This document shows positions 1,101 through 27,592 of a stretch of DNA of 64,000 nt, piece by piece. A model generated the notes under the pieces. It saw nothing but the letters and a program-made list of their open reading frames with translations, did no database searches and was not told the origin of the DNA. The position numbers were made by a program, and so were the translations under genes. Within the stretch, counting starts at the first letter, position 1; each line of letters opens with the position of its first letter. The stretch covers positions 6,653 through 70,652 of the forward strand of contig CAZWZF010000020.1 in assembly GCA_964638715.1 (NCBI GenBank), written 5' to 3'. This stretch comes from an uncultured bacterium. Its GTDB lineage: Bacteria > Armatimonadota > Hebobacteria > CAIYQO01.

Positions 1101-1527
1101 GCCTGTTAGCCCCTTTACTATTTCTACGAATGGGTAATTCAGGTATAAATAATATATCTATCGTACTTTTTGAGTATAGCAAAACAGACACTATATCGTC
1201 AATGTAAGTAGATATAAACTACAAAAAAATATCTAAAAATAGGTATTTCACCTTATTTATTCCATAAATAAAGTACAACTGCATCAATTTTACTCTTTTT
1301 AGCGAAATAAAAAAATAGCAATAGTCGAATATTACAAAATATTAGATACGAATAATAGCAGTATCAAAAGTATTATATTACTGAGTCAATTTTAATATCT
1401 GCCACGAATTGTAGGGAATGCCGTCCCCGGCATTCCGCAAATTGGTAGTTTATTTCTCAATAAGGAGATACATTTCCCCCTGAAAAGTGGTATATTTATC
1501 TCGTAATATTTCGGCAAAGGTGATTTT

Positions 1528-2778
1528 ATGCGGGCGGAGATTTTATCTATTGGCACTGAACTGCTGTTGGGGCAGATTATTGATACTAACGCGGCGTGGC
1601 TGGCGGAACGGCTGGCGGAATTGGGCATTGGCGTGTATAACCGGCAAACCGTCGGTGACAACGATGAACGGCTGGCGGATGCTATCCGACTGGCGAAAAG
1701 TCGCGCTGACCTGATTATATGTACCGGCGGATTGGGGCCTACCGGCGATGACATTACCTCGGCGAATATCGCACGGGTATTTGACACTCCGCTGGAAATC
1801 AACCAGGAAGCCAAGGTTAATCTGGAAAAATTGTTTGCCCGCCGCAGTTACCCGTTCACGGAGAAACAATATAAACAGGCGATGCTGCCCGTCGGGTCGG
1901 AGATGATTCTCAACCCCACCGGCACCGCGCCGGGATTTATATTAGACAAAGACGGCGTGATAATAATGGCATTTCCCGGTCCGCCGTTGGAGCTATACCC
2001 CATGTGGCGTCAAACCGCGGAGCCATACCTGCGCGCACGCGGCGAAAATGTAATCCATTCAATAACGCTGCGTTTTTGCGGCATCGGCGAATCGGCGCTG
2101 GAATCGCTGTTGCAGGATTTGATGGACAAGCAGAGCAATCCCACCATCGCGCCTTACGCTAAAACCGGCGAATGCCACATTCGGTTGACCGCCTGCGCCG
2201 CGTCGGTAGATGAAGCGAAAAAGATGATTGCGCCGTTGCAGGCAGATGTGATGGCTCGCGCCGGGAAATATATGTATGGGGTGAATGATGAAACCCTGGA
2301 AGTTGCAACCGGCAAGATACTGCGCCAGCGCGGACTGACCCTGGCAGTGGCGGAATCCTGTACCGGCGGCGCGCTGGGCGGACGCATAACATCCGTCGCG
2401 GGGGCATCAGAATATTTCCTCGGCGGGGTAATATCTTACGATAACCGCATAAAAGAAGAACTATTGGGCGTGTCGGCAAAATTGCTGCAACAGCATGGCG
2501 CGGTGAGTGAAGAGTGCGCCAAAGAGATGGCGGATGGCGTACGCAGAACCACCGGAGCGGATATCGGCATATCGATAACCGGCATTGCCGGTCCGGGCGG
2601 TGGCACCCCGGAGAAACCGGTAGGCCTGGTATATATCGGCATCAGCGCACCGCAATTCGCCACCACCGCCGTGCGCGGAATATTGGGCAGCGACCGCGAG
2701 ATGATACGCATCCGCGCCACCACCCAGGCACTGTTGATTTTACGGGATTATTTAACCGGGGCAGGAGTAATAATATGA
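1528..2778 (+). CDS. cinA: CinA family protein (competence/damage-inducible protein A; N-terminal MoCF-type domain plus C-terminal CinA/PncC-like nicotinamide-nucleotide amidohydrolase domain)
   Basis: 416 aa starting MRAEILSIGTELLLGQIIDTNAAWLAERL, the typical CinA N-terminus. The C-terminal half has the CinA domain signature (LAVAESCTGGALG...ISYDN). Confidence 0.9.
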   Translation: MRAEILSIGTELLLGQIIDTNAAWLAERLAELGIGVYNRQTVGDNDERLADAIRLAKSRADLIICTGGLGPTGDDITSANIARVFDTPLEINQEAKVNLEKLFARRSYPFTEKQYKQAMLPVGSEMILNPTGTAPGFILDKDGVIIMAFPGPPLELYPMWRQTAEPYLRARGENVIHSITLRFCGIGESALESLLQDLMDKQSNPTIAPYAKTGECHIRLTACAASVDEAKKMIAPLQADVMARAGKYMYGVNDETLEVATGKILRQRGLTLAVAESCTGGALGGRITSVAGASEYFLGGVISYDNRIKEELLGVSAKLLQQHGAVSEECAKEMADGVRRTTGADIGISITGIAGPGGGTPEKPVGLVYIGISAPQFATTAVRGILGSDREMIRIRATTQALLILRDYLTGAGVII

Positions 2779-2978
2779 ATATGCCGGATTTGCTGGGCAT
2801 GACCGCGGAAAACGCGGAGATGGCGATTAAAAAAGCCGGCTACGAGGTGATTCGCATAGATTCCCCCCGCCCCCGCTTCCTGAAATTCCCCGCCGAAGCA
2901 AAAGTGGTGCGGCAAAGAATGGTAGAAGGCAAAATAGAAATCTTCGTCGCGTTGACACCGGTTATTTTAACGGATTGA
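2775..2978 (+). CDS. Stand-alone PASTA-domain protein (67 aa)
   Basis: An internal Met of track ORF 2514..2978: MNMPDLLGMTAENAEMAIKKAGYEV...VVRQRMVEGKIEIFVAL matches the PASTA fold pattern (vPdl.Gmt.eeA...L...G). Its ATG overlaps the cinA TGA (ATGA), suggesting translational coupling. Confidence 0.45.
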   Translation: MNMPDLLGMTAENAEMAIKKAGYEVIRIDSPRPRFLKFPAEAKVVRQRMVEGKIEIFVALTPVILTD

Positions 2979-2998
2979 ATATATAAATCTTAAATATT

Positions 2999-3070
2999 CT
3001 TGCAAAACCTGTGTAACCAAGAGTATTCCGAGTATCCTGCTCACAATACGTTGAGTTTTGCAATTGACTC
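2999..3070. repeat. About 70-bp segment that is an inverted copy of the interior of the family-B element at 7780-7850
   Basis: cttgcaaaacctgtgtaaccaagagtattccgagta...gagttttgcaattgactc matches the reverse complement of 7780-7850 with 1-2 mismatches. It lacks the family-B TIRs. Together the two copies bracket the CBS-hydrogenase cassette. Confidence 0.55.
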
Positions 3071-3374
3071 TGATAACTTTATTTTTACTTCATTCGAGAG
3101 GTGGCAAGAGCGTCCCTCTCGGAAAAAGAAAGCGCCGGAAATAAATTTCAGCACCTTGCACCTTCTTGCACAGCTAACGTCACCGGGACGGTGACGCCAC
3201 ATTTTGCGCTAAATCCTGATACTAACCCTCAACCCATACCCACTCAATCACTTCAATTACAAAAAATAAATAAATCTATCACTCGAATTCTGAAAAAACA
3301 GTGATATAATTTACTAAAGTCCAAACTTTATGCTGAGTTTCTTATATCGAAGTAGTGATATAAAAGGAGAACTT

Positions 3375-3776
3375 ATGGATTATAATAAAAAAGCGGCGCA
3401 GGTGATGAATACTGATATTGTCACCACCACGCCGGATTTGTTATTGACTGATGCAATACAGCTAATGCTTGATCATTCAATCAGCAGTCTGCCGGTTGTG
3501 GATGAAGATGGCATGCTGCTTGGGTTTATTACCGAGTATGACATCATTAATTTTGCGATTAGCGGTGAAGCAGACCGGACCCGGGTGAAAGAAGCGATGG
3601 CGTTGGCGCATAAAGTAGTATCTTTTTCACCTGACACAGATTTAGAGACGATGGCTAACTGCTTCGTCACACAACGCATTCACCGGGTACCCATCGTTTC
3701 TGATGGCAAGGTTATCGGCATGGTTAGCCGACGTGATATTTTACGTGAAATACTGAGAATTTATCGAAAGAATTAA
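3375..3776 (+). CDS. CBS-domain pair protein
   Basis: MDYNKKAAQVMNTDIVTTTPDLLLTDAIQLMLDHSISSLPVVDEDGMLLGFITEYDII...RIHRVPIVSDGKVIGMVSRRDILR shows two CBS motifs. An AGGAGA RBS lies 7 nt upstream of the ATG at 3375. It sits immediately upstream of the hydrogenase operon. Confidence 0.8.
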   Translation: MDYNKKAAQVMNTDIVTTTPDLLLTDAIQLMLDHSISSLPVVDEDGMLLGFITEYDIINFAISGEADRTRVKEAMALAHKVVSFSPDTDLETMANCFVTQRIHRVPIVSDGKVIGMVSRRDILREILRIYRKN

Positions 3777-3780
3777 CTGC

Positions 3781-4821
3781 ATGGGGGTGCAAGCCATGAT
3801 ATTAAAAAGCATTGATGTTGCAATGATGACAACATGGGTAGATCGCCTGATTCCAAAGTTTAATATTTACGGGGTACAGGCTAAAGAAGATAAGTTTGCT
3901 TATGGTCTTTTGACACGCGGTGCAGATTTGCGGTTGGATTTTGATGTTACAATTCTACCGCCGAAAAAATATTTCCAGCCTCTCAAAGAAACGATAATGA
4001 AGTTCGTCCGGGGTGGTGAATATGAGTCAGTTCATGATGACGAATCAATAGTTTTATTTGGCGTACATCCCTACGATGTTGTTGCCATTGCCCAGATAGA
4101 CAAAATATTCAGTCATGGTGTCTACGATAGCCATTATATGAACCGCCGCAATAAAGCCACCATCGTCGCCTGCGATATTCAGAATACATCTCCAAATATG
4201 TTTGCCGCCTGCATGGGAACTGCTGTTGTTGACGATGATTATGACATACTACTCACCAAACTGGGGAAACATTATGTCGTCGAAGTTCGCACGGAGAAAG
4301 GCGAAGCATTACTGGCAGAGTTGGGTGACGTACCGGACGCTGACGCGCTGCTGCTGGCGCGACGCGAACAATTTTGGGAAGATGCCCGGCGATTTATGAA
4401 CAAATATTTATTGAAATGCAAGCCGGAAGATCTCCCTGAATTGCTGACGCAAACTTACGAACATCCAATTTGGGAGGAAAATGCCGCCCTTTGCTATTCT
4501 TGCGGTTCATGTAATCTCGTATGTCCCACCTGTTACTGTTTTGATGTCTACGATGATGTTGACTGGACATTAGAGAGTGGTGAACGTTTCCGGCAATGGG
4601 ACGGCTGCATGCTGCGCAAATTTGCTGAAGTGGCGGGAGGGCATAACTTCCGTAAAAACAGGGAAGAGCGATACCGGCATCGTTTTTACCGCAAGGGAAA
4701 ATATTTGTGGGACCGCATGGGAATGATTGCCTGTGTTGGATGCGGACGCTGTACCACAGCATGCACTGCTAAAATCGCTAATCCCGTTACCCTTTATAAC
4801 ACATTATATGAGGATAAATAA
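3781..4821 (+). CDS. hydB: Group 3b [NiFe] hydrogenase (sulfhydrogenase-type) beta subunit, 2x[4Fe-4S] ferredoxin-like
   Basis: 346 aa with two ferredoxin-type Cys clusters (CYSCGSCNLVCPTCYC and CVGCGRCTTACTAK). It is the first gene of a beta-gamma-delta-alpha arrangement matching the Pyrococcus-type hydBGDA order. Confidence 0.75.
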   Translation: MGVQAMILKSIDVAMMTTWVDRLIPKFNIYGVQAKEDKFAYGLLTRGADLRLDFDVTILPPKKYFQPLKETIMKFVRGGEYESVHDDESIVLFGVHPYDVVAIAQIDKIFSHGVYDSHYMNRRNKATIVACDIQNTSPNMFAACMGTAVVDDDYDILLTKLGKHYVVEVRTEKGEALLAELGDVPDADALLLARREQFWEDARRFMNKYLLKCKPEDLPELLTQTYEHPIWEENAALCYSCGSCNLVCPTCYCFDVYDDVDWTLESGERFRQWDGCMLRKFAEVAGGHNFRKNREERYRHRFYRKGKYLWDRMGMIACVGCGRCTTACTAKIANPVTLYNTLYEDK

Positions 4822-5664
4822 ATGACTGAACCTTCTATTTCTATAAAAGATGCGTATTTGCCGGAAACCGCAACGATATTGCATACAGAAATGCTGACAG
4901 CGCAGGATTTGTATATTAAAATTAAACTTGCAAACGGCAAAGATTTGGGGCACTTACCCGGTCAATTTGTCCAAATATCCATTGCTGGTGTTGGCGAAGC
5001 GCCGCTTTCTATCTCCTCATCACCAGACCTTCATGGCGCATTTGAAGTTGTTGTTCGCAATGCCGGACGTGTAACAGATGTGCTGCATCGTCTGGAAACC
5101 GGCTCAACACTCGGTATTCGCGGTCCATTCGGAACACATTTCCCGGTAGAAGAAGAAATGAAAGGGAAAAACATAATATTCATTTGCGGAGGCATCGGAC
5201 TGGTTCCCATTCGTTCGGCTATACAATATGTGCTTAACCGCCGCGATAATTATGGCAAGATCGCTATCCTGCTTGGTACCCGCTCACCCGCTGAACGGCT
5301 ATTTACCGATGAACTGGCAGCCTGGGGCGCTGTTGAAGGAGTAACTTTTCTGGAGACGGTTGACCGTGCTGATGAGCAATGGACTGGAAATATCGGTGTC
5401 ATCACTACGCTGATTCCAAAAATAGAAGTTGTTCCCGCCAACACCTGTGCGATAATTTGCGGCCCACCAGTGATGTATAAGTTCGTCATACGCGAATTAA
5501 CCGCCCGCGGAATGATGCCTAATGAAATCTACGTTTCTCTTGAACGACGCATGAAATGCGGAGTGGGGAAATGCGGACATTGTCAGATTAACGGTCTGTA
5601 TACCTGTATGGACGGGCCAGTGTTCAATTACGCAGATGTTGCGGATGCGCCGGAGGCTATATAA
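4822..5664 (+). CDS. hydG: Hydrogenase gamma subunit (FAD/NAD(P)-binding oxidoreductase, PyrK-like, C-terminal [2Fe-2S])
   Basis: 280 aa with a ferredoxin-reductase-type FAD/NAD fold (GQFVQISIAG...IICGGIGLVP...IICGPPVM) and a C-terminal CGVGKCGHC cluster motif. Its ATG follows one nt after the hydB stop. Confidence 0.75.
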   Translation: MTEPSISIKDAYLPETATILHTEMLTAQDLYIKIKLANGKDLGHLPGQFVQISIAGVGEAPLSISSSPDLHGAFEVVVRNAGRVTDVLHRLETGSTLGIRGPFGTHFPVEEEMKGKNIIFICGGIGLVPIRSAIQYVLNRRDNYGKIAILLGTRSPAERLFTDELAAWGAVEGVTFLETVDRADEQWTGNIGVITTLIPKIEVVPANTCAIICGPPVMYKFVIRELTARGMMPNEIYVSLERRMKCGVGKCGHCQINGLYTCMDGPVFNYADVADAPEAI

Positions 5665-6417
5665 ATGAAAAAACCAAGAGTAGCTATTTTTGATTTTGCC
5701 TGTTGCGAAGGCTGCCAATTGCAGATTGTTAATATGGAAGAGGAATTACTCGACCTGATAGCGTTAATAACACCGGTAGAGTGGCGGGAAGCCATGTCGG
5801 AACAGAGCGACAAGTATGATATTGCCATCATCGAAGGTTCTATCACCCGCCCGGAAGATGAAGAGCGTATTAAAGAAATCCGCTCACGGGCAAGTATACT
5901 CATCGCACTGGGTGCCTGTGCCACCATCGGCGGAGTTAATAAGCTGAAGAATAATTTTGAAAGCATTGATGAGGTGAAACGATGTGTCTATGGCGACGCT
6001 GCCCGTATGCCCCATTTGGTAACCATGCCGGTAAAAGCGGTGAATGAAGTGGTGAAAGTTGATTACTACGTGCATGGGTGTCCTATTAATATCGACGAGT
6101 TCAGCTACATTGTGCGCTGCCTGGCGCGAAATGTGCCGCCGGTAATCCCCAACTTTCCCGTTTGTGTCGAATGCAAAATGCGCGAGAATATTTGCCGTTA
6201 TGAATACGGTGAACTATGCCTTGGCCCGGTAATTCGTGCCGGATGCAATGCGCCATGTCCGGCTGCCGGCATGTGGTGTTTTGGGTGTCGCGGGTATGTT
6301 GATGAGCCAAATGTAAACGCAGCGAAAGATGTAATGGACAAATACCGGTTAACCATTGCTGACTTGCAAAGCAGATTATTGCTGTTCAACAGCACACAGG
6401 AGTCGACCAATGTCTAA
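5665..6417 (+). CDS. hydD: [NiFe] hydrogenase small (delta) subunit
   Basis: 250 aa with an N-terminal FDFACCEGCQ proximal-cluster motif and C-terminal Cys clusters (CVECKMRENICRYE...CNAPCPAAGMWCFGC), typical of group 3 small subunits. Confidence 0.8.
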   Translation: MKKPRVAIFDFACCEGCQLQIVNMEEELLDLIALITPVEWREAMSEQSDKYDIAIIEGSITRPEDEERIKEIRSRASILIALGACATIGGVNKLKNNFESIDEVKRCVYGDAARMPHLVTMPVKAVNEVVKVDYYVHGCPINIDEFSYIVRCLARNVPPVIPNFPVCVECKMRENICRYEYGELCLGPVIRAGCNAPCPAAGMWCFGCRGYVDEPNVNAAKDVMDKYRLTIADLQSRLLLFNSTQESTNV

Positions 6418-7735
6418 AATTGTTGAAATTAACGTACATCATGTCACTCGCGTAGAAGGACACGGCAATATTCATGTGCGCATCAACGATTGCGGTGTTG
6501 AAAGCGTAGAATGGCAGGTACCGGAAGCACCGCGATTTTTCGAGGCAATGGTGCGCGGACGAAGCTGGGAAGATATCCAGACCGTGGTGGCGCGTATCTG
6601 CGGTATATGTTCCGTGACACATTCGCTGGCGGCACTGAAAGCCATAGAGGATGCCATGGAAATAGAAATTTCTGAACAAACAGAAATGCTGCGCATCCTC
6701 GCTTTGTATGGGGAACATATAGAAAGCCATGTCCTGCATATTGGTTACCTGGTGGCTCCTGACCTGTTGGGAGTAAAATCAGTCGTACCGCTGGTAACTT
6801 CACACCCCGAATTGCTGAAACTTGTCATCAGGCTGCATAAGTTGGGCAATACCATGATGGAAATACTCGCCGGTCGAAAAACGCATCCGATTTCATTCAG
6901 GCCTGGTGGGTTTGGACGTGTGCCAACTGAAAATGAATTGCGCGAGTTAAGAAAAATGCTGGTTGACGCAATTCCTGATTACCAGGTTTTAATGGACGCG
7001 GTATTTGGCCTGGCAGACAAATTGCCAAAGTTTGAACGCGATACCGAATATATTGCACTGATTGACCATGTTGATTATGCCCTTTACAACGGGAATATCG
7101 GCAGCAGCGACACCACGAAAACAATGCCGGTGCAAAAGTTCAAATCGGTAGTAAATGAATACGTCGTGCCGCAATCAACAGCAAAATGGGCAAAGTGGCA
7201 TCGTGAATCTTATGCCGTTGGTGCACTTGCGCGCTGCAACCTGAATAGCGAGTATCTGCTGCCGCTGGCACGGGACGTGGCAAAGAAGTTTGGATTATTA
7301 GACGGATGCTGCAACCCGTATATGAATACAGTTGCACAACTGGTAGAGGTGGCACAGGTTGTTGAACATGGTATACAACTCATCGACCAGCTGCTCACTG
7401 CCGGTGTAACGCATAATCTTCCAAAGATAAAACCACAGGCAGGATGGGGAGCAGGAGCGGTAGAGGCGCCTCGCGGAGTGCTTTTCCACAGTTATGCTTT
7501 TGATGATAACGGCATCTGCACCGGGGCAAACATGACTATTCCGACAAACCAGAATCACGCCAATATCCAGCATGACATGGAAAAACTGGTGAACTTAATC
7601 GCAGACCAGGATGAGGACAGTATAAGGCTGCAGCTTGAAATGCTGGTTCGCGCCTATGACCCCTGCATATCATGCTCAACTCACTATATGGACATCGAAT
7701 TTATCAAATGTGGGTATCCACCCACAACCCATTAA
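6410..7735 (+). CDS. hydA: [NiFe] hydrogenase large (alpha) subunit
   Basis: 441 aa from an internal ATG (MSKIVEINVHHVTRVEGHG) that overlaps the hydD stop by 8 nt and is preceded by ACAGGAG. It carries the N-terminal RICGICSVTH (L1) and C-terminal DPCISCSTHY (L2) Ni-Fe ligand motifs. Confidence 0.9.
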   Translation: MSKIVEINVHHVTRVEGHGNIHVRINDCGVESVEWQVPEAPRFFEAMVRGRSWEDIQTVVARICGICSVTHSLAALKAIEDAMEIEISEQTEMLRILALYGEHIESHVLHIGYLVAPDLLGVKSVVPLVTSHPELLKLVIRLHKLGNTMMEILAGRKTHPISFRPGGFGRVPTENELRELRKMLVDAIPDYQVLMDAVFGLADKLPKFERDTEYIALIDHVDYALYNGNIGSSDTTKTMPVQKFKSVVNEYVVPQSTAKWAKWHRESYAVGALARCNLNSEYLLPLARDVAKKFGLLDGCCNPYMNTVAQLVEVAQVVEHGIQLIDQLLTAGVTHNLPKIKPQAGWGAGAVEAPRGVLFHSYAFDDNGICTGANMTIPTNQNHANIQHDMEKLVNLIADQDEDSIRLQLEMLVRAYDPCISCSTHYMDIEFIKCGYPPTTH

Positions 7736-7736
7736 T

Positions 7737-7900
7737 ATTCACCACAAAAGAACGCAAAAACCACAAAAGAAGAATTTTAGAGTCAATTGCAAAACCCAAT
7801 GTTTTGCGAGCATCTTACTCGGAATACTCTTGGTTACACAGGTTATGCAATTACCTCTTTAGAAAACTCTTTGTGTTCTTTGAGTTCTTTTGCGGTGAAT
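7737..7900. repeat. MITE-like element, family B (TIRs ATTCACCACAAAAGAAC / GTTCTTTTGCGGTGAAT), copy 1, about 164 bp
   Basis: The TIRs match with one mismatch. The interior contains gagtcaattgcaaaac...tactcggaatactcttggttacacaggttatgcaa, which is the reverse complement of 2999-3070. It begins 2 nt after the hydA stop. Confidence 0.6.
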
Positions 7901-7967
7901 AATAGCCCATTACATTAATTTACAAACAACTGGTTATATTTCAATGTTCTTTGAACTTAAGGTACTA

Positions 7968-8438
7968 ATGAACAACCAGTCAAATCTGTCTGTTATTGGC
8001 CTTGGCAACATTTTATGCTCCGATGAAGGCATAGGAGTATATTTGTTGCGCCGATTACAGGAATGTTCATGGCCTGTAGCAATTGATTTCATTGAATTTG
8101 GCGTTGGCGGCATGCAATTGCTGCACCTGATAACCGGTCGGCAAAAAGTCATTCTACTCGACTGCGCTTTCATGGGTGACGCGCCGGGAACAATCCGCCG
8201 TTTCACCCCGGACGAAGTTATTTCACGAAAAAACAACACCGGCTTATCGCTTCATGAAGGCGATCTGCTATCAATTCTTACTCTCGCAGCAACTATTGGT
8301 GAATCCCCTGACGAAATAATCATCTTTGGTATTGAACCAGCGATTGTAACCCCGGGTATGGAACTATCACCAGTGTTAAGCAAACGTCTGGATGAATACC
8401 AGGCGATGGTGACAAAAGAAATTTTTCACATCGATTAA
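7968..8438 (+). CDS. Hydrogenase maturation endopeptidase (HycI/HyaD family)
   Basis: MNNQSNLSVIGLGNILCSDEGIGVYLL...LLDCAFMGDAPGTI, the typical GxGNxlxxDDGxG protease N-terminus. It lies downstream of hydA, after a 164-bp MITE-like insertion. Confidence 0.8.
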   Translation: MNNQSNLSVIGLGNILCSDEGIGVYLLRRLQECSWPVAIDFIEFGVGGMQLLHLITGRQKVILLDCAFMGDAPGTIRRFTPDEVISRKNNTGLSLHEGDLLSILTLAATIGESPDEIIIFGIEPAIVTPGMELSPVLSKRLDEYQAMVTKEIFHID

Positions 8439-8680
8439 CAGGATTTTAAAGATAAAATTGTTGAAGTAAATAGGAAAACCTATTTGCTAAATTATAGATT
8501 GATACCTTAAAAGCCCCTCCCCTCAATCCCCTCCCCGGTTGGAGAGAGGAAGAACGACTATCAGTGACTGACACCAAGTGGCGAAGCCAGGAAGGTGTCT
8601 GTCACATCGGGTTGCCGCAAGGTTTTGCAAGAGCCTATTAAAATATTAAATCTTTTAAATCCTGTTAATCGATGTGAAAA
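8423..8680. repeat. MITE-like element, family A (terminal inverted repeats TTTTCACATCGATTAACAGG / CCTGTTAATCGATGTGAAAA), copy 1, about 258 bp
   Basis: A perfect 20-bp TIR pair, extended imperfectly to about 29 bp. The left TIR overlaps the last codons (FHID*) of the hydrogenase protease gene. The interior contains G/C-rich palindromes (cccctcccctcaatcccctcccc...; gtgactgacacc/ggtgtctgtcac). Confidence 0.6.
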
Positions 8681-8778
8681 TTAGAATACCGCAAAATGTG
8701 AACAATTACATGAAACCATTGAATTTTTCAACTATTTCTGGTATAAAAACAATGTATTCAATTAGTGGGGGATTTACT

Positions 8779-9252
8779 ATGAAGTGGTTTGCTTTTATTG
8801 GTTTGCTGATTGTTTTGCTGTTATGCGGATGCACGCAGGATGGCACTTTGCGGCATGATGTTAACACCGGCAGCAATGGCTCGCTGGACGGATTATCCAT
8901 CACGCCTGCCCCGCAAAGCCTGGGCATCGCGACAGACACAGAGTTTTATCTTGATTGGGCAGTAAACACCTCGCCGCCATCCACCTTCACGGTAACCTTG
9001 CGAAAAATCGAGAAAAACGGCGACACCCACCTGGTACGTACCGTTTTAGATACATTAAGTACCGGCCATTATCGCCTGTACAAAGATTGGAACTTGGACA
9101 CTCAGTCATTTTATATGCTGGAGATAATAGGCGGCGGCAAACAAGTACGCACCATCTACCTCACCGGCGGCACATCCGGCGCCCAAAAACGCAATTCCGG
9201 CGAGGAAAAAGGCGAAGAAACGCACGAAGTTAAATTGACAATTGACAATTGA
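8779..9252 (+). CDS. Hypothetical lipoprotein
   Basis: MKWFAFIGLLIVLLLCGCTQDG is a signal peptide with a LCGC lipobox. The start was chosen at the internal Met preceded by a GTGGGGGA RBS-like stretch. There is a T-run directly after the stop. Confidence 0.5.
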   Translation: MKWFAFIGLLIVLLLCGCTQDGTLRHDVNTGSNGSLDGLSITPAPQSLGIATDTEFYLDWAVNTSPPSTFTVTLRKIEKNGDTHLVRTVLDTLSTGHYRLYKDWNLDTQSFYMLEIIGGGKQVRTIYLTGGTSGAQKRNSGEEKGEETHEVKLTIDN

Positions 9253-11810: not shown

Positions 11811-12857
11811 CTACCCTTCCAAATAATGCACTTCAGACTGCCCGTGTAAACTTTTCGCTGCCGATTCGGCGGTTATGTCTCGTTGCGGGTTGCCCAGCAT
11901 TTCAAAGCCTACCATAAATTTTTTCACGCTGGCACTGCGCAATAGCGGCGGGTAAAAATGCGCATGCAGGTGCCATTCTTCATGATTGCCGCCATCGGTG
12001 GGAGCATGGTGCCAGCCCATGGAATACGGGAAGGAGCATTTGAACAAGTTGTCATATTTGCAGGTGATTTTTTTCAGAATATCGGCAAGCGAGGCTTTTT
12101 CTTTTTCTGTTAATTCTGCCAGCGATTTCACATGGCGGCGCGGCAGCAGCATTGTCTCGAACGGCCATGTCGCCCAGAAAGGAACCAACACCATAAAATC
12201 GTCATTTTCAACTACGATTCTTTCCTTCGTTTCTGCCTCTATTTTCAAGTAATCGCACAACAGGCATGATTGGGTTTCTGCCAGGTATTTGCTTTGATTA
12301 ACCAATTCCTTGGCGGGTTCGCCGGGAATATTTTCACTGGCCCATATCTGGCCATGCGGATGCGGGTTGCTGCACCCCATCATGGCACCTTTATTCTCGA
12401 ATATCTGTACGTAATTAATATAATCGCAGGCACCAAGTTCGATATACTGGTCTACCCACACATTTATAACGCCGGTAATATCTTCAATGCTCATGCGTGG
12501 CAGCGTCAGGTCGTGACGCGGTGAGAAACAAATCACCCGACACTTGCCGCGGTCGGCCTTGGCGCGCAGCAGGTTATTAACGTTCATCACACCGTCCGGG
12601 GTATCCGGCAGCAATGCGCTGAAATCATTGTCAAACACAAAAGTACTGGCATATTTCGGATTGCTGACACCCTCAGCGCGGGTATTGCCGGGGCACAGGT
12701 AGCATTTGGGGTCATACTGCGGACGATTGTCGGCGATTGCATCCTCTACCGCCCCCTGCCAGGGACGTTTGCCACGGTGCGGCGACACCAGCAGCCATTC
12801 ACCGTTAAGCGGGTTAAAACGCTGATGCGGATGTTCCGACATATTAAAAGACATCAA
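11811..12857 (-). CDS. galT: Galactose-1-phosphate uridylyltransferase (GalT, HIT superfamily)
   Basis: [12 protein letters not shown] zinc motif, the HPHGQIWAS active-site motif (HxHxQ) and [16 protein letters not shown]. Confidence 0.85.
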
Positions 12858-12937
12858 AATTACCTCGGGAAAGTTTAAGTTGAATATATATCTTTCGATA
12901 AATGAAGTAAAATTCCCTGCTGAACCAAAATGATATT

Positions 12938-13021
12938 ATTCACCACAAAAAAACGCAAAGACCGCAAAAGAAGACTAATTAATAACCTCTTTTGCGGTCT
13001 TTGTGTTCCATTGCGGTGAAT
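12938..13021. repeat. MITE-like element, family B, short copy (about 84 bp) between galT and fabH
   Basis: attcaccacaaaaaaacgcaaagaccgcaaaag...cttttgcggtctttgtgttccattgcggtgaat has the same outer TIRs as 7737-7900, plus a perfect internal 15-bp inverted repeat (caaagaccgcaaaag / cttttgcggtctttg). Confidence 0.55.
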
Positions 13022-13041
13022 CTATATCTTTTCAAAACCTT

Positions 13042-14019
13042 CTACCAGCGCATTGCCATTGCACCCCAGGTTAAGCCGCCCCCGAAGCCGACGAGGATTA
13101 TCAGGTCGCCTTTGTTTACCCGTCCCTGCTCAACAGCTTCGCTGAGAGCCAGCGGGATTGAGCCGGCGCTGGTGTTGCCGTATTCCTGCAGATTTACCAT
13201 CCAGCGTTCGATAGGTATGCCCAGCCGTTTTGCTGATGCGTCGATGATGCGCATATTTGCCTGGTGCGGTATAACCAGCGCGATATCGTCGACGACGGCA
13301 TTAATGCGCGACAGCACTTCGCGAACAGATTCTTCCAGAGATCGCACTGCAAATTTAAATACTTCGGCACCATTCATGCGTAGAAAATGTTCGTGCTTTT
13401 CAATGGTTTCGATGGATGCAGGTCGGCGCGAACCGCCCGCCGGTATGGTCAGCAAATCCGCACCGCTGCCATCAGCGCGCAGGTAAGATGCTAATATTCC
13501 ACTTCCCTGTTCTGTCGGCTGCAATACGCATGCTCCGCCGCCATCACCCAATAATACGCAGGTGCCGCGATCGGTATAATCGGTAATGCGCGATAAAATA
13601 TCTCCGCCAACCACCAGGGCATTTTTATATAATCTTGAGCCGATGAGCGACGCACCGACTGTTAAGCCATAAATAAAACCGGTACAGGCGGCGGCAATGT
13701 CAAATGCGGCGGCGTGAGTTGCACCCAGAAGATTTTGCAGCAAACAAGCGGTGGATGGCATTAAAGTGTCGCCGGTCACCGATGCCACAATTATGCAATC
13801 AAGGTCTGCGGCGTCTAACTTGGCTTCTTCCAATGCTGCCTGGGCGGCTGGCAATACCATATCTGATAAAGCCATATCTGGATCAGCGATGTGTCGGGTG
13901 ATGATTCCGCTTCGTGAGCGTATCCACTCATCTGAAGTATCCACCAATTTTTCCAAATCAGCATTTGTCATAATATGTTTTGGAGCACAAGCCTTAATTG
14001 AAGTAATCCCTGCTGGCAT
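13042..14019 (-). CDS. fabH: 3-oxoacyl-ACP synthase III FabH
   Basis: The start was set at the internal Met so that MPAGITSIKACAPKHIMTNADLEKLVDTSDEWIRSRSGI aligns with the canonical FabH N-terminus (M...GTGSYLPE..RTNADLEKMVDTSDEWI). It carries the active-site C in AAACTGFIYGL and the C-terminal GFGGGLTWGA. The track ORF extends to 14052. Confidence 0.9.
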   Translation of the reverse strand: MPAGITSIKACAPKHIMTNADLEKLVDTSDEWIRSRSGIITRHIADPDMALSDMVLPAAQAALEEAKLDAADLDCIIVASVTGDTLMPSTACLLQNLLGATHAAAFDIAAACTGFIYGLTVGASLIGSRLYKNALVVGGDILSRITDYTDRGTCVLLGDGGGACVLQPTEQGSGILASYLRADGSGADLLTIPAGGSRRPASIETIEKHEHFLRMNGAEVFKFAVRSLEESVREVLSRINAVVDDIALVIPHQANMRIIDASAKRLGIPIERWMVNLQEYGNTSAGSIPLALSEAVEQGRVNKGDLIILVGFGGGLTWGAMAMRW

Positions 14020-14078
14020 AATAGTATTTAACAATTCAGAATCTTTAATCACAGAAATCCCCTTTCCATATCAACCTT

Positions 14079-14105
14079 GCGAATTAAGAAATATAATTCG
14101 CAACC
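14079..14105. promoter_or_regulatory. Candidate operator palindrome upstream of fabH: TTGCGAATT-N9-AATTCGCAA
   Basis: Perfect 9-bp inverted arms about 60 nt upstream of the fabH start on its strand. A related half-site, caaggttacgaatt, recurs about 25 nt further upstream. Confidence 0.4.
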
Positions 14106-14210
14106 ATATTTCAGCAAGGTTACGAATTATTCTTACAATTCACCCTGCAACTAAACTTTACCAGTGAATTGGTTATACGTCAATAACTATATGATGAATG
14201 TCGAATACAT

Positions 14211-14726
14211 TTACCGTTCAGCGACTACCACTGCATTATCAATTATATACAACATTTTATCATCAGGCTTTCCAGTCGCTACTTTTAATGTTCCATATAT
14301 ACTTACCGGCCAATCAGTTAAATCTAACTGTTTGCCATTAGCTACATTTACCTGCACAATTTCCGCTACTCCAGGTGGATTGCAAAAATAGCATCCGCGC
14401 GGCCTTCCAGCTATGAAGAACTGAGATGATGGACCTGCTTCATGAAAAGGAAGCATGAAGCCTTTGACGTGCACATATTTGTCAGACATCTGTGCAATAT
14501 CTGGCTTAACTATCGGTTTTTTTCCATATTCCCAACATCCCTGTTGTAAATTTTTCCAATCAATATCTGCATATTGACCGGAAGGTGCATGCTTTGAATA
14601 ACCCGGCAATTTAGGCCCAATTACCAATTGCATCAAATCTTTATCTGACATTACCCAAATGACAAGAAGAAGAACTATTACACCAATAGCAATTAAAATA
14701 TTCCTCTTTCGTTTTTTCTGATTCAT
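14211..14726 (-). CDS. DUF3299-like periplasmic/anchored protein associated with the ABC exporter
   Basis: 171 aa with an N-terminal TM anchor (ILIAIGVIVLLLVIWV). It is the last gene of the ABC ATPase-permease operon. The family assignment is from memory of its usual genomic context, with moderate confidence. Confidence 0.5.
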   Translation of the reverse strand: MNQKKRKRNILIAIGVIVLLLVIWVMSDKDLMQLVIGPKLPGYSKHAPSGQYADIDWKNLQQGCWEYGKKPIVKPDIAQMSDKYVHVKGFMLPFHEAGPSSQFFIAGRPRGCYFCNPPGVAEIVQVNVANGKQLDLTDWPVSIYGTLKVATGKPDDKMLYIIDNAVVVAER

Positions 14727-14729
14727 CTT

Positions 14730-15962
14730 TTACTCCTGAACTAATATATCTGCAACCGATAAACGATATGCGATAATAGCCGGCAATAAACCGGCAAAAA
14801 CACCTAAAATCAAAACACTTAATGCAACTACACCTTCTATCGGCTCAAAATGCCAGGCATTTAAGGCAATGCCAAAGCGAGTCATTACCATCGACGACCC
14901 TAACGCGGTAATTCCATGACCAAGCAGCCAACCTGATATAACACCAAACGCCGACAATACCGACGCCTCTAAAGCTATTACACGAAATACATCAACACGG
15001 GTAGCACCCAGGGAACGAATAACAGCAATATCGCGACGACGCTGGTGTATTGAATAGTACAGACTGATAAGTATCGTTAAAGATGACACAAAAACCACCA
15101 GGTAAGCCACTATTAACAAAATACCTTGTAATGGTGCAATAAACGTACTGGCAACTTTATCAATTTGATCTACCGGAACAACAGCCATGGCAGCTTGATG
15201 AGCATTTAAATCCTGGATTAAACGAAACCTGGCAGCGGGCTGATTAAGCCGTACCAGCAGTGAAGTTACTTCGCTGGTTGGATCGTGTCCCGGCTCAGGC
15301 TTTTCATCAGCATCAGGATGCGAGTGAACTATCCAGGTACTGTGATAATCAACATATACCGCGCGATCTATATTTGTTCCGGTTGGTGATAAAACACCGA
15401 CAACTGTATATGGAAATTGCGGGTGAAAATCATCACTTTTACCCCACCCGTGCGCACCGATTATCTTCTGTCCAATTTGTAAATCACTTCTCCTTGCGAC
15501 TTCAGACCCAACTACTGCTTCAAATGGTTTAATAAAACATTTCCCCTGTGCGAATAAGCCATCATTATTTATTGCTTTCCTGCCATCAAAAAAAGCCGGG
15601 ATGGTGCCAACAATCGGTGACCCGAAATAATTGTCACCCATAGTTAGTGGAATCACCCGCTCAACTACCGGGTCAGATTGCAGTCGTTTCCATACAGATA
15701 TGTTTACATTGCCAACTGGCGAATCCAGATAATACAGGCTGTTCAAGACAATCTGCAACGGACTTCCCTTTGCCCCTACAACAATATCCCAATTTGCGGT
15801 TTCTTTATTAAGTGTAGACTGAGTTTGAGTAGATAATATAAGAACTATTGTCGCGAGTGCCAGACCCAAAGCTACAGAAATAACAGTGAGTGATGTCATC
15901 AGTATCCGGGAACGAAGGTATGAAAAAATTAATTTAAAATCAGTCATTATAAAGCTCCTCAT
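14730..15962 (-). CDS. ABC transporter permease, FtsX-like (MacB/LolE family)
   Basis: 410 aa with an N-terminal TM, a large periplasmic domain and three C-terminal TMs, and the FtsX-like conserved region (RRRDIAVIRSLGATRVDVFRVIALEA). It overlaps the upstream ATPase gene by 23 nt. Confidence 0.8.
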   Translation of the reverse strand: MRSFIMTDFKLIFSYLRSRILMTSLTVISVALGLALATIVLILSTQTQSTLNKETANWDIVVGAKGSPLQIVLNSLYYLDSPVGNVNISVWKRLQSDPVVERVIPLTMGDNYFGSPIVGTIPAFFDGRKAINNDGLFAQGKCFIKPFEAVVGSEVARRSDLQIGQKIIGAHGWGKSDDFHPQFPYTVVGVLSPTGTNIDRAVYVDYHSTWIVHSHPDADEKPEPGHDPTSEVTSLLVRLNQPAARFRLIQDLNAHQAAMAVVPVDQIDKVASTFIAPLQGILLIVAYLVVFVSSLTILISLYYSIHQRRRDIAVIRSLGATRVDVFRVIALEASVLSAFGVISGWLLGHGITALGSSMVMTRFGIALNAWHFEPIEGVVALSVLILGVFAGLLPAIIAYRLSVADILVQE

Positions 15963-16620
15963 GTGTCACCCATGTTGAGGCATCGATAATGCGGGTAAAT
16001 CGTGAAGCGATACTGGTATCATGGCTAACCATGACAAGAGTGGAATTATGTGTGTCGCAAATACGGAACAGCATATCCAATATCGTTGCAGCATTCGTTT
16101 TATCCAGGCTTGCCGTAGGCTCATCTGCCAATATTACTGCCGGCTCATTTATCACCGCACGGGCTATTGCAACCCGCTGCTGCTCTCCGATAGATAATAA
16201 TTTCGGCATTGCATGGACACGTTTTGTTAACCCAACTTCGGTCAGCAATTTATCAGCATGATGATGTGCTTCTGATGCAGACCATTTTCTACCGTATCGC
16301 GCGCCTAATAATAAATTATCAGTCACCGTAAGGGTGGATAATAACTGAAATGACTGAAAAATAAGCCCTAAATGGTGACCGCGAAAAATGTCGACATCAT
16401 GAGAACTCATGCTGTCGATGCGTTCACCAGCGATAGTTATTGTGCCTTCATCAGGACGCAATAATCCCGCAAGAAGATTTAATAATGTTGTTTTTCCGCA
16501 CCCGCTGGGACCGCTGATAAGTATGCGTTCACCCTTTTTTATTGATAGTTCATCAACAGCCCAATGCAAGGTATGACCAAAGATTGAATAATTTTTTTTG
16601 ATATCATGACAATAAATCAT
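15940..16620 (-). CDS. ABC transporter ATP-binding protein (MacB/LolD type)
   Basis: Walker A GPSGCGKTT, signature LSIGEQQRVAIARA, Walker B ILADEPTASLD and H-loop MVSHD. Confidence 0.9.
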   Translation of the reverse strand: MIYCHDIKKNYSIFGHTLHWAVDELSIKKGERILISGPSGCGKTTLLNLLAGLLRPDEGTITIAGERIDSMSSHDVDIFRGHHLGLIFQSFQLLSTLTVTDNLLLGARYGRKWSASEAHHHADKLLTEVGLTKRVHAMPKLLSIGEQQRVAIARAVINEPAVILADEPTASLDKTNAATILDMLFRICDTHNSTLVMVSHDTSIASRFTRIIDASTWVTHEELYND

Positions 16621-16715
16621 GTTTTATGCTCCAAATATATAGCTGGCAATTACTGACACGATAATGCTAAATAACATTACATTTTACTGTATCAGCAATA
16701 ATGGTTGAGGATAAA

Positions 16716-17075
16716 TTAACCTGCTAATGTTGGAGGAGCGCGGGACGGAGTGAATATTGATACCGTGCGCTGAATGAAGGAAGCGGCACAAGGTGGATTT
16801 TCTATTTTTATCAACTCTACGGAATAAGTTGGTATTAAAAGTGAACCGCAACTATTGAAAGCATCCTGGACGAAACAAGCCGGGCATGAATCACCATTAT
16901 TGTTAACACTATTTGATATAAATACGGTGCAGTTGCTGTATAGATTTGTTTGCGATAGACGAAAATTATTATGGTTATGACCAGACAACCCGATACCTGC
17001 ATAAAACAGATACGGAATTAAAAACAGCAATAACCAGGTTTTTCTGAAACTTCGCAACACGTTACACTTTACCAA
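16716..17075 (-). CDS. Hypothetical secreted/membrane protein
   Basis: 119 aa with a hydrophobic N-terminus (WLLLFLIPYLFYAGIGL), several Cys and a GHNHNN stretch. It is upstream of the ABC operon. No family recognised. Confidence 0.3.
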   Translation of the reverse strand: MVKCNVLRSFRKTWLLLFLIPYLFYAGIGLSGHNHNNFRLSQTNLYSNCTVFISNSVNNNGDSCPACFVQDAFNSCGSLLIPTYSVELIKIENPPCAASFIQRTVSIFTPSRAPPTLAG

Positions 17076-22120: not shown

Positions 22121-22168
22121 AGTTTCCTCATTAAACAGATTCCTATTTGATTGTTCTATAAAGTAACT

Positions 22169-23278
22169 TCAACCATCGCTGATGGTACTGGCTTTAGTAA
22201 GATATGCTTTTGCTTTACTTTCTGCAACTTTAGCTTTCTGTTCTAATGCTTTTGCGTTATTTGCGTCTTTAGCTATTTTTAATTTAAAATCAGCTACACT
22301 TGCGCATGGAGCGATTCGACTGAGAGTTTTTGGGTCTAATTCATTGAGTTCTAATATCATGGTATCTATTTCGTCCCTAAGAGATTGCATCATTACTTCC
22401 ATAGCAGTTTTCATTGCACAATCTGCAGCGTAGGAATAGGCTTTAACAGCGAATAGGTGTGAGTCACAATATGTTTCATATAGCTCACAGTATAATTTAT
22501 AAAGATCAGAATTCGAAACACAAAAAATTCTATTAGAACTCAAATTCACAAAAATAGCAGAAAGATTATCAAATGCTACGCAAAGGTTGTCAATAGCACT
22601 AGAATGAGAGTCCAAGTAGGCTTCGGTATATGGTTCAAAGTCTGCGGGATCTTTATAATGTGAAACTGTTTCATTATAGGTATCAACAGCGGATTGATCA
22701 TTACCATTGTCAAGAGCATTGGTAGCTTTTAGTATGGAATAACGATTATTTGCACGTTCGGTGTAAGGTTCAATTACTTTAAAAGCGGCATCATAGGTGT
22801 TTATAGCAATGTCAAATGCAATAGCGTCAGTATCCAATTTATTGGATGTGATGTAAAAACGACCATATATTATATCAAACTCTCGTCTTTGGTCAGAGCG
22901 AAATTCTTTAAACAAGGGAGAAAAAATCACAAATATAGTTCCAAGATTGGCACTCAAATTAAGCGCCAAGTTATTATACAAATATGTCGCTGTTGAAGGA
23001 CTAAAGAATCCAATCAAAAATGCTACTACGAATAAAAGTATTACCCAAGTTAAAACAACAAGAATTATTTTACCAAAAACAGCAGGACGCATCTGTTTTT
23101 TGAACACAAGTTTTATTGCAATTGGAAGATAAGATATAAGTGGTAAAATTACCTGTGCAGAAGTAAATAGACCAAAATAGTACCCTATAGGAACCCACCA
23201 CAATGCTGACCAACCTTGATGTATAATCATCAAGATAAGAAGTATACCTGTTAATATAAAAACTATTATTCTCCACAT
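22169..23278 (-). CDS. Four-TM membrane protein with an about 250-aa cytoplasmic domain, partner of the ATPase at 19487-22120
   Basis: 369 aa with four predicted TM helices in the first about 125 aa (IIVFILTGILLILMII; WWVPIGYYFGLFTSAQVILPLISYLPIAI; ILVVLTWVILLFVVAFLIGFF; GTIFVIFSPLF), then a soluble domain ending in a Lys/Ala-rich coiled coil. It is 48 nt upstream of the ATPase on the same strand, in the AT-rich island. Confidence 0.65.
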   Translation of the reverse strand: MWRIIVFILTGILLILMIIHQGWSALWWVPIGYYFGLFTSAQVILPLISYLPIAIKLVFKKQMRPAVFGKIILVVLTWVILLFVVAFLIGFFSPSTATYLYNNLALNLSANLGTIFVIFSPLFKEFRSDQRREFDIIYGRFYITSNKLDTDAIAFDIAINTYDAAFKVIEPYTERANNRYSILKATNALDNGNDQSAVDTYNETVSHYKDPADFEPYTEAYLDSHSSAIDNLCVAFDNLSAIFVNLSSNRIFCVSNSDLYKLYCELYETYCDSHLFAVKAYSYAADCAMKTAMEVMMQSLRDEIDTMILELNELDPKTLSRIAPCASVADFKLKIAKDANNAKALEQKAKVAESKAKAYLTKASTISDG

Positions 23279-23589
23279 ATTTCACTTCCATTTAAATTAA
23301 TTCTTATACGTTTTAATTCCTCTAAAATCAGAGATCTTCTATGAATACATCTTAGACATTTCACAATCCTTCATAAGTTTTATGAAATGTATATGAGTGC
23401 AAGTAGAATATCCTCATTTCAATAAACACATTATCTATGTGTTTACTACATTTGGTCAATACTAATTCAATACTTTTAACTATTATTTCTATAATAAAAC
23501 TCACTAATTTTATAGATAATAAAGACTTTATAAACTTCACTTCCTTATTTTAACGCAGCCCGGTTATCAAAATGTTGCTATTTATTTTG

Positions 23590-23670
23590 TTATTACACAG
23601 CGACTCACAGAGGAAATTTATTAACACCTCCGTGTATCTCTGTGTCTCCTCTGTGTATCTCTGTGTCACC
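23590..23670. repeat. Palindromic repeat unit, CACAGAG family (copy 1, about 80 bp), 5-prime flank region of the membrane-protein gene and 3-prime of the repeat-protein gene
   Basis: ttattacacagcgactcacagaggaaatttattaacacctccgtgtatctctgtgtctcctctgtgtatctctgtgtcacc shares its ends with 25760-25866 in the same orientation. Confidence 0.55.
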
Positions 23671-23693
23671 AAAAAAAATAAACTCTCAATTGA

Positions 23694-25759: not shown

Positions 25760-25866
25760 TTATTACACAGAGATTCACAGAGGAGACACAGAGTCTCACG
25801 GAGGAAAATTTATAAAAACACCTCCGTGTATCTCCGTGTCTCCTCTGTGAATCTCTGTGTAACACC
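25760..25866. repeat. Palindromic repeat unit, CACAGAG family (copy 2, about 107 bp)
   Basis: ttattacacagagattcacagaggagacacagagtctcacggaggaaaatttataaaaacacctccgtgtatctccgtgtctcctctgtgaatctctgtgtaacacc contains nested inverted repeats (cacagaggagacacagag / ctctgtgtctcctctgtg; cacggagg / cctccgtg). Together with copy 1 it flanks the 660-aa repeat-protein gene as direct repeats. Confidence 0.55.
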
Positions 25867-26360: not shown

Positions 26361-26381
26361 TCGATAAATATAACATATTTT

Positions 26382-26476
26382 TATTGAACCACGATTTATT
26401 GGATTATAAGATTAGAGGATAATAAAAAATTCTTAAATCTCAAAAAATCCTCTCAATCCGTGGTTCAGATAAACAG
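26382..26476. repeat. Inverted-repeat element, GAACCACGATT family (copy 1), immediately 3-prime of the FGE gene
   Basis: ttattgaaccacgatttattggatta...aatcctctcaatccgtggttcagataaaca has inverted arms tgaaccacg / cgtggttca about 60 bp apart. Confidence 0.5.
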
Positions 26477-27315: not shown

Positions 27316-27354
27316 AAAATAAAGTCTCCTAAAATACAATTATTTTTTTGTCTG

Positions 27355-27592
27355 AACCACGATTTATAGGATTAATGGATTAGGGGATTATTATTTTCGA
27401 ATTAGCCATAATTTTTTGAATTAAAAAAATCCTGTAATCCCAAAATCCCCAGAATCGTGGTTCAGACAAAAATCCTCTAATGAAATATTATATGTATCTT
27501 GCGGGTGTGTCAATGAATGTTTGGGGGGTATTTGTCTGAACCACGGATTGAGAGGATTTTTGGGATTACAGGGAATTAGCATCGAAATTGGG
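27355..27592. repeat. Cluster of GAACCACGATT-family inverted repeats (copies 2-4) 5-prime of the FGE gene
   Basis: tgtctgaaccacgatttataggatta..., cccagaatcgtggttcagacaaaaatcctctaatg (inverted) and tgtctgaaccacggattgagaggatttttgggattacagggaatt. There is also a second nested pair, aatcctgtaatcccaaaatcc / ggatttttgggattacagg. Confidence 0.5.

Follow-up and report, generated by a model that had tools for sequence, protein, structure and literature searches.

The closest described counterparts of the locus considered here are the sulfhydrogenases SHI and SHII of Pyrococcus furiosus (hydBGDA, shyBCDA) and the cytosolic hydrogenase of Thermococcus kodakarensis (PDB 9nez, 9e15, 5yxy), together with bacterial cassettes for group 3b [NiFe]-hydrogenases. 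We analyzed a 64-kb stretch of contig CAZWZF010000020.1 (assembly GCA_964638715.1), called the window below and used as the reference for all coordinates unless another locus is named (L001-L018 denote comparison loci and contigs). It holds genes for a CBS-pair protein, four hydrogenase subunits and a maturation protease, and the first five of these are bracketed by two inverted copies of a repeat, element A. The beta-gamma-delta-alpha order of the subunit genes is the same as in the archaeal systems, as the initial annotation had recognized for Pyrococcus hydBGDA. The domain set of SHI/SHII is also the same: an AsrA-like Fe-S protein, an AsrB-like protein with FAD/NAD(P)-binding and [2Fe-2S] domains, an Oxidored_q6 protein, and a large subunit that carries the motifs RxCGxC and DPCxxCxxH. 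Unlike in SHI/SHII, a CBS-pair gene stands in front and a maturation protease gene of its own behind, and the window proteins score far under the Thermococcales cut-offs. The bacterial cassettes L010 (GCA_054606775.1), L011 (GCA_054642535.1), L017 (GCA_054641855.1) and L016 (GCA_024231675.1), from metagenome-assembled genomes (MAGs) of Armatimonadota and Planctomycetota, have the same (CBS)-hydBGDA-hycI module, with HydA proteins 66-85% identical to window HydA. Unlike the window, these four loci contain neither A nor a second repeat, element B. In L010 and L011 the hydA stop and the hycI start are shared, whereas in the window the two genes are parted by a composite repeat of ~250 nt that rewrites both ends.

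For the repeats, the nearest comparison is with bacterial MITEs (miniature inverted-repeat transposable elements) and repetitive extragenic palindromic (REP)-like sequences such as Correia, RUP, ERIC and RPE (PMC3184786), which are likewise small and non-coding, with terminal inverted repeats and strong hairpins. Intergenic dispersal, nesting, fusion to the 3' ends of genes with supply of codons or stops, and the breaking of short-read assemblies are further shared traits. Unlike the known families, A appears to be low-copy and has a putative target-site duplication at one copy only, and no cognate transposase or REP-associated tyrosine transposase (RAYT) was identified for it. The integron mobilization unit (IMU) of Enterobacter cloacae (Poirel 2009, reviewed in PMC3184786) likewise has a gene cassette whose presence varies between relatives, flanked by two small elements that carry terminal inverted repeats. 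Unlike in the IMU, the A copies of the window appear to be inverted relics of different lineages, which do not match both ends of the variable segment; no flanking duplication of the whole unit is seen and no second location is known. The repeat families of the window (A, B, C and D) are undescribed, with no Rfam match and no literature match, and conventional in kind.

Our observations are likely explained by a self-contained bacterial 3b operon, CBS-hydB-hydG-hydD-hydA-hycI, within an accessory cassette, by a bracket that consists of independent, decayed A copies, and by repeats that are passengers. The repeats are best read as the ends of neither a mobile unit nor an inversion switch, and the bracket as incidental. 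A copy 1 would have settled in the spacer upstream of the operon and copy 2 in the loop of B. We infer that such repeats spread selfishly or are neutral, acting at most as RNA hairpins that modulate read-through or mRNA stability. The striking inverted bracket would then be a by-product of a repeat-rich genome, not a mobilization or switching device.

The hydrogenase operon and its host

The gene series given in the initial annotation, from the CBS gene through hydB, hydG, hydD and hydA to the maturation protease, is borne out by gene calls and motifs. All genes lie on the forward strand. The CBS-pair protein gene (3375-3776, 133 aa) is followed by a hydB-like gene for the beta subunit (3796-4821; AsrA-like Fe-S protein, PF17179, ShyB 198.7 bits), a hydG-like gene for the gamma subunit (4822-5664; FAD/NAD(P)-binding with a DHODB-type [2Fe-2S] domain), a hydD-like gene for the small subunit (5665-6417; Oxidored_q6) and a hydA-like gene for the [NiFe] large subunit (6410-7735, 441 aa; PF00374). 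In HydA, both nickel-binding motifs are present, RxCGxCxxxH as RICGICSVTH and DPCxxCxxH as DPCISCSTH (DPCISCSTHY with the next residue). The maturation endopeptidase of the hycI/hupD type, encoded up to 8438, has 156 aa from the ATG at 7968 or 164 aa from the ATG at 7944, and matches TIGR00072 with 116 bits against a cut-off of 47.

The operon promoter is probably a putative extended -10 box (TGATATAAT, 3302-3310, forward strand), read from the sequence 65 nt upstream of the CBS start codon and outside element A; an AAGGAG ribosome-binding site at 3364-3369 precedes the CBS gene. A sigma-70 scan did not report the box because its -35 box is poor. Within A, candidate sigma-54 and sigma-70 promoters were rejected, with no match by eye and a consensus scan at background numbers.

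As proposed in the initial annotation, the four-subunit enzyme falls into group 3b. The top NCBIfam match of all four subunits was a Shy/Hyd sulfhydrogenase model, and for the large subunit ShyA and HydA scored 288.6 and 251.9 bits, versus 179 for VhuA and 139 for FrhA. The HydG-like subunit matched PRK08345 with 258 bits and HydG with 214 bits, and PF17179, PF00175 and PF10418 matches were found across the HydB/HydG partner pair. Structures of 3b enzymes outscored those of groups 3a, 3c and 3d: the top PDB matches of HydA (phmmer), scoring 237-240 bits, were SHI of P. furiosus and the cytosolic hydrogenase of T. kodakarensis, with lower scores for Mvh (3c, 190), the NAD-reducing enzyme 5xf9 (3d, 129) and Frh (3a, 100-161). 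The partner subunits form the AsrA-like and AsrB-like pair typical of 3b, and are not HoxEFU, FrhB or MvhD/Hdr. From the motifs, the subunit set and the best matches to solved sulfhydrogenases, we accept the enzyme as a predicted group 3b [NiFe]-hydrogenase. The Thermococcales equivalog cut-offs (NCBIfam NF040828-NF040836) were missed (ShyA 288.6 of 700, ShyB 198.7 of 690, HydG 214 of 650, HydD 167 of 500), and the enzyme appears to share its subgroup with SHI/SHII as a distant bacterial branch, not as an orthologue. Its predicted role, by homology, is to move electrons between NAD(P)H and H2; in HydDB, group 3b enzymes are NADP-coupled and reversible (PMC5037454).

The HydA family is very common, with at least 8000 proteins at E <= 1e-30. 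The best 120 of them are at least 64% identical, and the named sources among these 120 are Armatimonadota, Kiritimatiellae, Planctomycetota and Lentisphaerae MAGs. The complete CBS-hydBGDA-hycI module is also found in L011, L016 and L017; the CBS gene is truncated in L010 and missing from the module of L015. Genes flanking the cassette differ in each genome compared (L010, L011, L015-L017).

The gene for a CBS-pair protein of ~130 aa is a conserved first gene (L011 6866-7258, L016 2890-3276, L017 2817-3224, window 3375-3776), and the CBS-first 3b cassettes come from MAGs labelled Armatimonadota and Planctomycetes. The protein could be a nucleotide-sensing partner of the hydrogenase; a literature search returned no paper that ties a CBS domain to group 3b hydrogenases. 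In L010, the closest cassette-bearing relative (HydA 85%), a HoxEFU-like diaphorase with a second pair of small and large subunits lies directly after the 3b operon (12153-16984), which gives a tandem of two cofactor-coupled hydrogenases, the second from a group 3d-like cluster.

The host is a lake bacterium with a repeat-rich genome. It had been described as PVC-type (Planctomycetes-Verrucomicrobia-Chlamydiae), a framing that has to be corrected: among named relatives, those nearest in CinA (60%, then 52-54%) and in HydA (85%, 70%) are Armatimonadota-labelled MAGs, and the genome-collection match to element A is also an Armatimonadota MAG. The PVC label probably arose from the PVC-typical families DUF1549, DUF1553, DUF1501 and DUF1559, which are present. 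Group 3b enzymes are already known from Armatimonadota (PMC10290634). The enzyme class is a known one in a phylum where it has been reported, and the small palindromic repeats around its genes are undescribed but conventional.

Element A and the nested palindromes

A repeat search of the window recovered the flanking inverted repeat of the initial annotation, with 86-nt arms at 3000-3085 and 7765-7850 that are 84% complementary and bracket CBS-hydB-hydG-hydD-hydA. By BLAST, the two arms share a 72-nt core with 88.9% identity. Exactly two occurrences of the 27-mer CCTGTGTAACCAAGAGTATTCCGAGTA are present in the 64 kb, one for each strand, where 100 shuffles lead one to expect 0. When the two copies are aligned, a mismatch cluster separates a 36-nt block with one mismatch from a perfect 17-nt block, because the copies keep opposite arms of an inner hairpin. 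Copy 1 (2998-3085, forward strand, nhmmer 86 bits), a shortened and decayed version of a MITE-like palindrome, begins 21 nt past the stop codon of a 67-aa gene that follows cinA. It retains the left arm of the inner hairpin (CGAGTATCCTGCTC), and its left terminus is degenerate beyond TTGCAAAACC. Copy 2 (7772-7857, reverse strand, nhmmer 92.8 bits) lies at the exact centre of B and retains the right arm (CGAGTAAGATGCTCG; CGAGYAAGATGCTCG), as does the copy in L006.

Exact-word scans of public collections found A at one further locus in each scan. In a Lake Mendota Armatimonadota MAG (L006), it lies 14 nt after an unknown open reading frame (ORF) and upstream of an OmpR-type regulator gene. In L007 and L008, which are one locus from two JGI samples (the L007 sample also holds the window strain), a RhaT-like gene and a HEAT/CBM9 gene converge on it from either side. 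This last copy is full length (~100 nt), with termini CAATTGCAAAACC and GGTTTTGCAATTG and a 15-bp inner hairpin (CGAGCATCCTGCTCG ... CGAGCAGGATGCTCG). Full-length A folds into a near-perfect hairpin (-38 kcal/mol, z -11.1); the window copies fold no better than shuffled sequence (z -1.1 for copy 1, -2.0 for copy 2). Alignment of the A copies identified a 21-nt core, TGTAACCAAGAGTATTCCGAG, that is identical across all four, and the window copies as different 23-nt deletion derivatives of the ~100-nt hairpin. Copy 2 is closest to the L006 copy (93.8% identity); for the left half of copy 1, identity to L007/L008 reaches 97.7%. Since the deletions differ and the copies are closer to outside copies than to each other, the bracket appears to consist of two independent, decayed A relics and not of a (recent) inverted duplication.

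With terminal inverted repeats, a hairpin-folding non-coding core and dispersed copies at unrelated loci, A would be a low-copy, dispersed palindromic MITE/REP-like element that is apparently not tied to the hydrogenase. The sequence TTTAG is found on both sides of copy 2 (7767-7771, 7858-7862), where TTTAT stands in the empty site; it is a putative target-site duplication, and none is clear at copy 1, L006 or L008. With an nhmmer profile of A, the window and L009-L012 yielded no additional copies, and neither A nor B elements lie beside the hyd cassettes of L010, L011 and L015-L017. Two other origins of A were rejected, from a tRNA/att site (zero tRNA genes in the window) and from a virus (a viral contig scan was empty). 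Rfam returned no credible family for the whole window at the gathering threshold or for 2900-8800 under permissive settings; the only match, mir-2005 (E = 0.33) inside hycI, was regarded as noise.

Element B is a palindromic repeat with a ~64-nt tail (7710-7968, forward strand, left end within 7710-7721; arms 7733-7767 and 7870-7904). The initial annotation had already noted the downstream repeat within a "family B" element that parts hydA from the protease gene; the same nesting was seen here, with A at the centre of this second palindrome. With A nested, the B palindrome folds at -53.7 kcal/mol (z -6.3). Copies of B that lack A occur in L007 (5168-5337) and L014 (9458-9624); window 12934-13021 holds a third, in the form of a short hairpin (-45.6 kcal/mol, z -11.6). 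The filled site reads GAAGAAT-TTTAG-[A]-TTTAG-AAAACTC and the empty site GAAGAAT-TTAT-TAAAACTC; B is seen both with A (window 7721-7968) and without it.

In L010 and L011, the start of hycI overlaps the stop of hydA (GTG TAA TGG; TAATG), and the HydA C-terminus is ...STHYVDVQFV. In the window, HydA ends in ...THYMDIEFIKCGYPPTTH. The counterpart of the relatives' junction is ATC AAA TGT, with AAA (7706-7708) in place of the TAA stop, and HydA is extended by 9 codons (KCGYPPTTH, 7706-7732) to a TAA at 7733-7735 inside B. Nucleotide homology to L010 breaks off at 7701, picks up again at 7987 and runs as far as 8422. At the distal end of the B tail, hycI restarts at ATG 7968 with AAGG ahead, and its conserved segments SDEG, LLDCA and SLHEGD, which we take to hold the metal-binding residues of HycI, are intact.

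From this comparison, B appears to have inserted on an ancestral overlap of hydA stop and hycI start. Landing there, and with A in its loop, B would have uncoupled hydA and hycI, added 9 residues to the cleavable C-terminal tail of HydA, taking it from 7 to 16, and given hycI a new start. The locus is a clean case of nested palindromes on a translationally coupled stop/start overlap that seem to have rewritten the HydA tail and both hycI ends with the frames intact, and the rewritten HydA tail is the peptide that the maturation protease removes. A 76-aa ORF (7672-7902) traverses the B/A composite and includes the ancestral hycI start (ATG 7708-7710), after which repeat sequence and then a stop now come. 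Such an ORF could be mis-annotated but almost certainly does not represent a gene.

The 3' end of hycI is overlapped by a third nested pair, C in D. Element D (8423-8680; second copy 33413-33535) is a palindromic repeat with 43-nt terminal arms. Its termini of 32-43 nt start with TTTTCACATCGATTAA, and the two copies differ in the element or hairpin that is nested at their centres. The last 5 codons and the stop of hycI are supplied by the left terminus of D. Element C (about 8470-8635, forward strand; 78.7% to L008 740-846) forms the centre of D, its termini being A-like (AGGAAAACCT ... AGGTTTTGCAAGAGCC). Four same-strain contigs terminate at 8474-8542, inside or just ahead of C, and one begins at 3016 inside A, as is typical of assemblies breaking at repeats. 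Both nested A-type elements occupy the exact centres of their host palindromes (A in B, C in D), a position that hints at loop targeting; insertion sequences (IS) that target REP sequences are known (PMC3184786).

Variation at the locus and the role of the repeats

The segment 2979-8712, which comprises A, CBS-hydBGDA, B with nested A, hycI and D with nested C, is absent from L014. This is a close relative, with a CinA protein that is 97% identical (90.7% at the nucleotide level over that block). L014 5410-6921 aligns to window 1468-2978 and L014 7038-7544 to window 8713-9218, and the 5.7 kb between these blocks are replaced in L014 by 116 nt, mostly a B-family hairpin, the left arm of which matches B (score 50, 0/3000 shuffles). 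A second assembly has the same gene order as L014, and L013 (CinA 90%) and L018 (CinA 62%) have no hyd genes after cinA either. Outside the window's own cluster, no HydA with more than 85% identity was among the matches listed, though the relative with 97% identical CinA is in the database. Based on this and on the absence in L014, the cassette is accessory, through either gain here or loss in L014. With a 3b cassette that varies between close relatives, H2 metabolism recorded for one MAG population is not predictive for another population with 97% identical CinA.

The region around the cassette is a mosaic. Synteny with L014, L013 and L018 (81-91% identical over cinA) survives only as blocks of 0.5-1.5 kb. 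The shared blocks hold cinA with the 67-aa gene (1468-2978) and a lipoprotein gene (8713-9218), and everything around them differs, an unusually fine rearrangement. Since synteny differs on both sides beyond the two shared blocks, the region is better described as mosaic than as one clean insertion.

Several further candidates were tried and rejected. The hairpin at the L014 junction was rejected as a D orthologue (which would have put the right breakpoint at 8423), with a similarity to D not above that of shuffled sequences (345 and 90 of 3000). Similarity of the L014 spacer to window 8636-8712 was not above shuffles either (561/2000), and the right breakpoint was therefore kept at ~8712. The composition of the cassette is not foreign, with GC of 0.459 versus 0.438 for the window and GC at third codon positions (GC3) within the range of neighbouring genes. 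Plasmid carriage was rejected as all plasmid HydA matches were under 60% identity, the best eight listed being 35-37%. A transfer test comparing CinA and HydA divergence for the L010 genome was dropped, as the candidate CinA (P0138) came from another assembly.

The initial annotation had suggested MITE-mediated mobilization, inversion of the hydrogenase module, or a shared regulatory site. The first suggestion survives in so far as the cassette is structurally variable, not in the A pair as agent or boundary: the flanking A elements do not coincide with both ends of 2979-8712, and the missing segment takes in hycI and ends ~860 nt past A copy 2. A related version is that the cassette is cargo of a composite unit, with A copy 1 (3000) as one end and A copy 2 (7850) or C (8635) as the other, and was moved into the cinA-lipoprotein spacer by an unseen trans-acting transposase, akin to MITE-flanked integron mobilization units. 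It is precisely this spacer that lacks the cassette in L014, the proposed ends have AT-rich near-repeats beside them (TTAAATAT and TTAAAATAT), and MITE pairs are able to mobilize cargo in trans, as in the IMU element (PMC3184786). The left breakpoint and a pair of inverted perfect TTGCAAAACCT sites, both described below, also fit. Yet an A-to-A unit (3000-7850) leaves out hycI and mismatches the segment missing in L014, and C is central in an intact D palindrome, the right arm of which lies outside the proposed unit. C was therefore presumably inserted in place and did not arrive as a unit end, and an A-to-C unit is unlikely for this reason. The A copies also seem to come from different deletion lineages, with a degenerate left terminus in copy 1. 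The hyd cassettes of L010, L011 and L015-L017 have no flanking A or B, cassette and window do not differ in composition, and a scan of window ORFs (those of at least 170 aa) showed no transposase gene. Together, these points make a composite unit very improbable.

Still less credible, and close to negligible in our estimate, is the proposal that the A pair is a recombination substrate which inverts the 4.7-kb hydBGDA and acts as a phase-variable switch parting the operon from its promoter and from hycI. The copies are inverted, and 36 near-perfect nt (one mismatch) plus 17 nt would in principle be enough for rare RecA-dependent exchange. The window and the five same-strain contigs listed (from ENA, JGI twice, NCBI and Logan, hence four sources) are, however, collinear wherever they overlap: both junctions are covered by the window, L001 and L002, the downstream one also by L003-L005, and the orientation is the same in all of them. 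No transposase or recombinase domain was found in the scanned ORFs or in the gene calls of window 1-17.7 kb, and the copies are 89% identical and apparently of independent origin. Known invertible switches have short inverted repeats around promoters and not around whole operons, which we also count against inversion.

A regulatory site shared within the hydrogenase module finds no support, given the other A copies, which follow unrelated genes, one of them between convergent gene ends. More generally, A could be a co-opted functional hairpin (a terminator or attenuator, an mRNA 3'-end stabilizer or a protein-binding site) that selection maintains at transcription-unit ends, among them the two ends of hydBGDA. 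All four known A copies lie just 3' of gene ends, 21 nt behind the 67-aa gene, 37 nt behind hydA, 14 nt behind the L006 ORF, and between convergent genes in L007/L008. The 21-nt core is invariant in the four copies, and hairpins of the REP and MITE type are known to stabilize or terminate transcripts (PMC3184786). On the other side, the window copies are without half the hairpin and fold like shuffled sequence, changes in the outer stem break pairs without compensation (the four copies are too few for covariation), no T-run follows the stem, and no Rfam family matched. We consider co-option unlikely, if less so than a composite unit. A somewhat better, though still doubtful, possibility is that A- and C-type elements (termini TTGCAAAACCT) home to the centres of palindromes and, together with other repeats, drive the fine mosaic of 0.5-1.5-kb blocks between genomes with 85-91% identity, including gain or loss of the hydrogenase operon at the cinA-lipoprotein spacer.

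Several observations fit poorly with independent relics and passenger repeats, the explanation that we prefer. The two A copies are just 4.7 kb apart although A looks low-copy (two in 64 kb), a proximity that random scatter would not predict and for which we have no explanation. No more than 21 nt separate A copy 1 from the point (2979) where the variable segment begins. Perfect TTGCAAAACCT sites occur in the window only at 3000-3010 (forward) and 8620-8630 (reverse), close to the two ends of that segment and pointing towards each other; ~0.03 further perfect sites are expected by chance. The putative target-site duplication, TTTAG, is limited to one A copy, and no cognate autonomous element was found, with no transposase domain in the scanned window ORFs or in the fetched loci adjacent to A. 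In addition, the count of A copies is a lower bound, since exact-word scans miss diverged copies; L002, a JGI contig bearing both A copies, was not returned by the metagenome collection.

Other features of the window

Small palindromic repeat families are also present at 27636-27856 and 49546-49608, and at 26378-26423 and 27345-27472 (for example, AACTCCCCTCCTTGCCAAGGAGGGGGCAGGGGGTGG). L008 2895-2953 matches the window region 49445-49570, and the genome is generally repeat-rich.

An AT-rich island at 19487-25676, with palindromic repeats by it at 23623-23669 and 25763-25863, is probably an acquired defence locus. It contains a gene for an 877-aa SMC_N/AAA_21 ATPase (19487-22120, reverse strand) with a GC content of 0.28 and a GC3 of 0.155, versus 0.438 for the window. 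The ATPase matches Lamassu LmuB models (PDLC03859, 3.3e-22), and the adjoining ORFs of 369 and 660 aa have no family match. A type I restriction-modification set lies in 37785-46099 (hsdS 39909-41474, hsdM 41332-42750, hsdR 43406-46099), and a 487-aa protein adjoining the hsd genes matches the candidate defence family PDC-M36A. Near the window end, a collagen-like gene (62031-63956, reverse strand) consists of imperfect 9-nt tandem units (Gly-X-Y).

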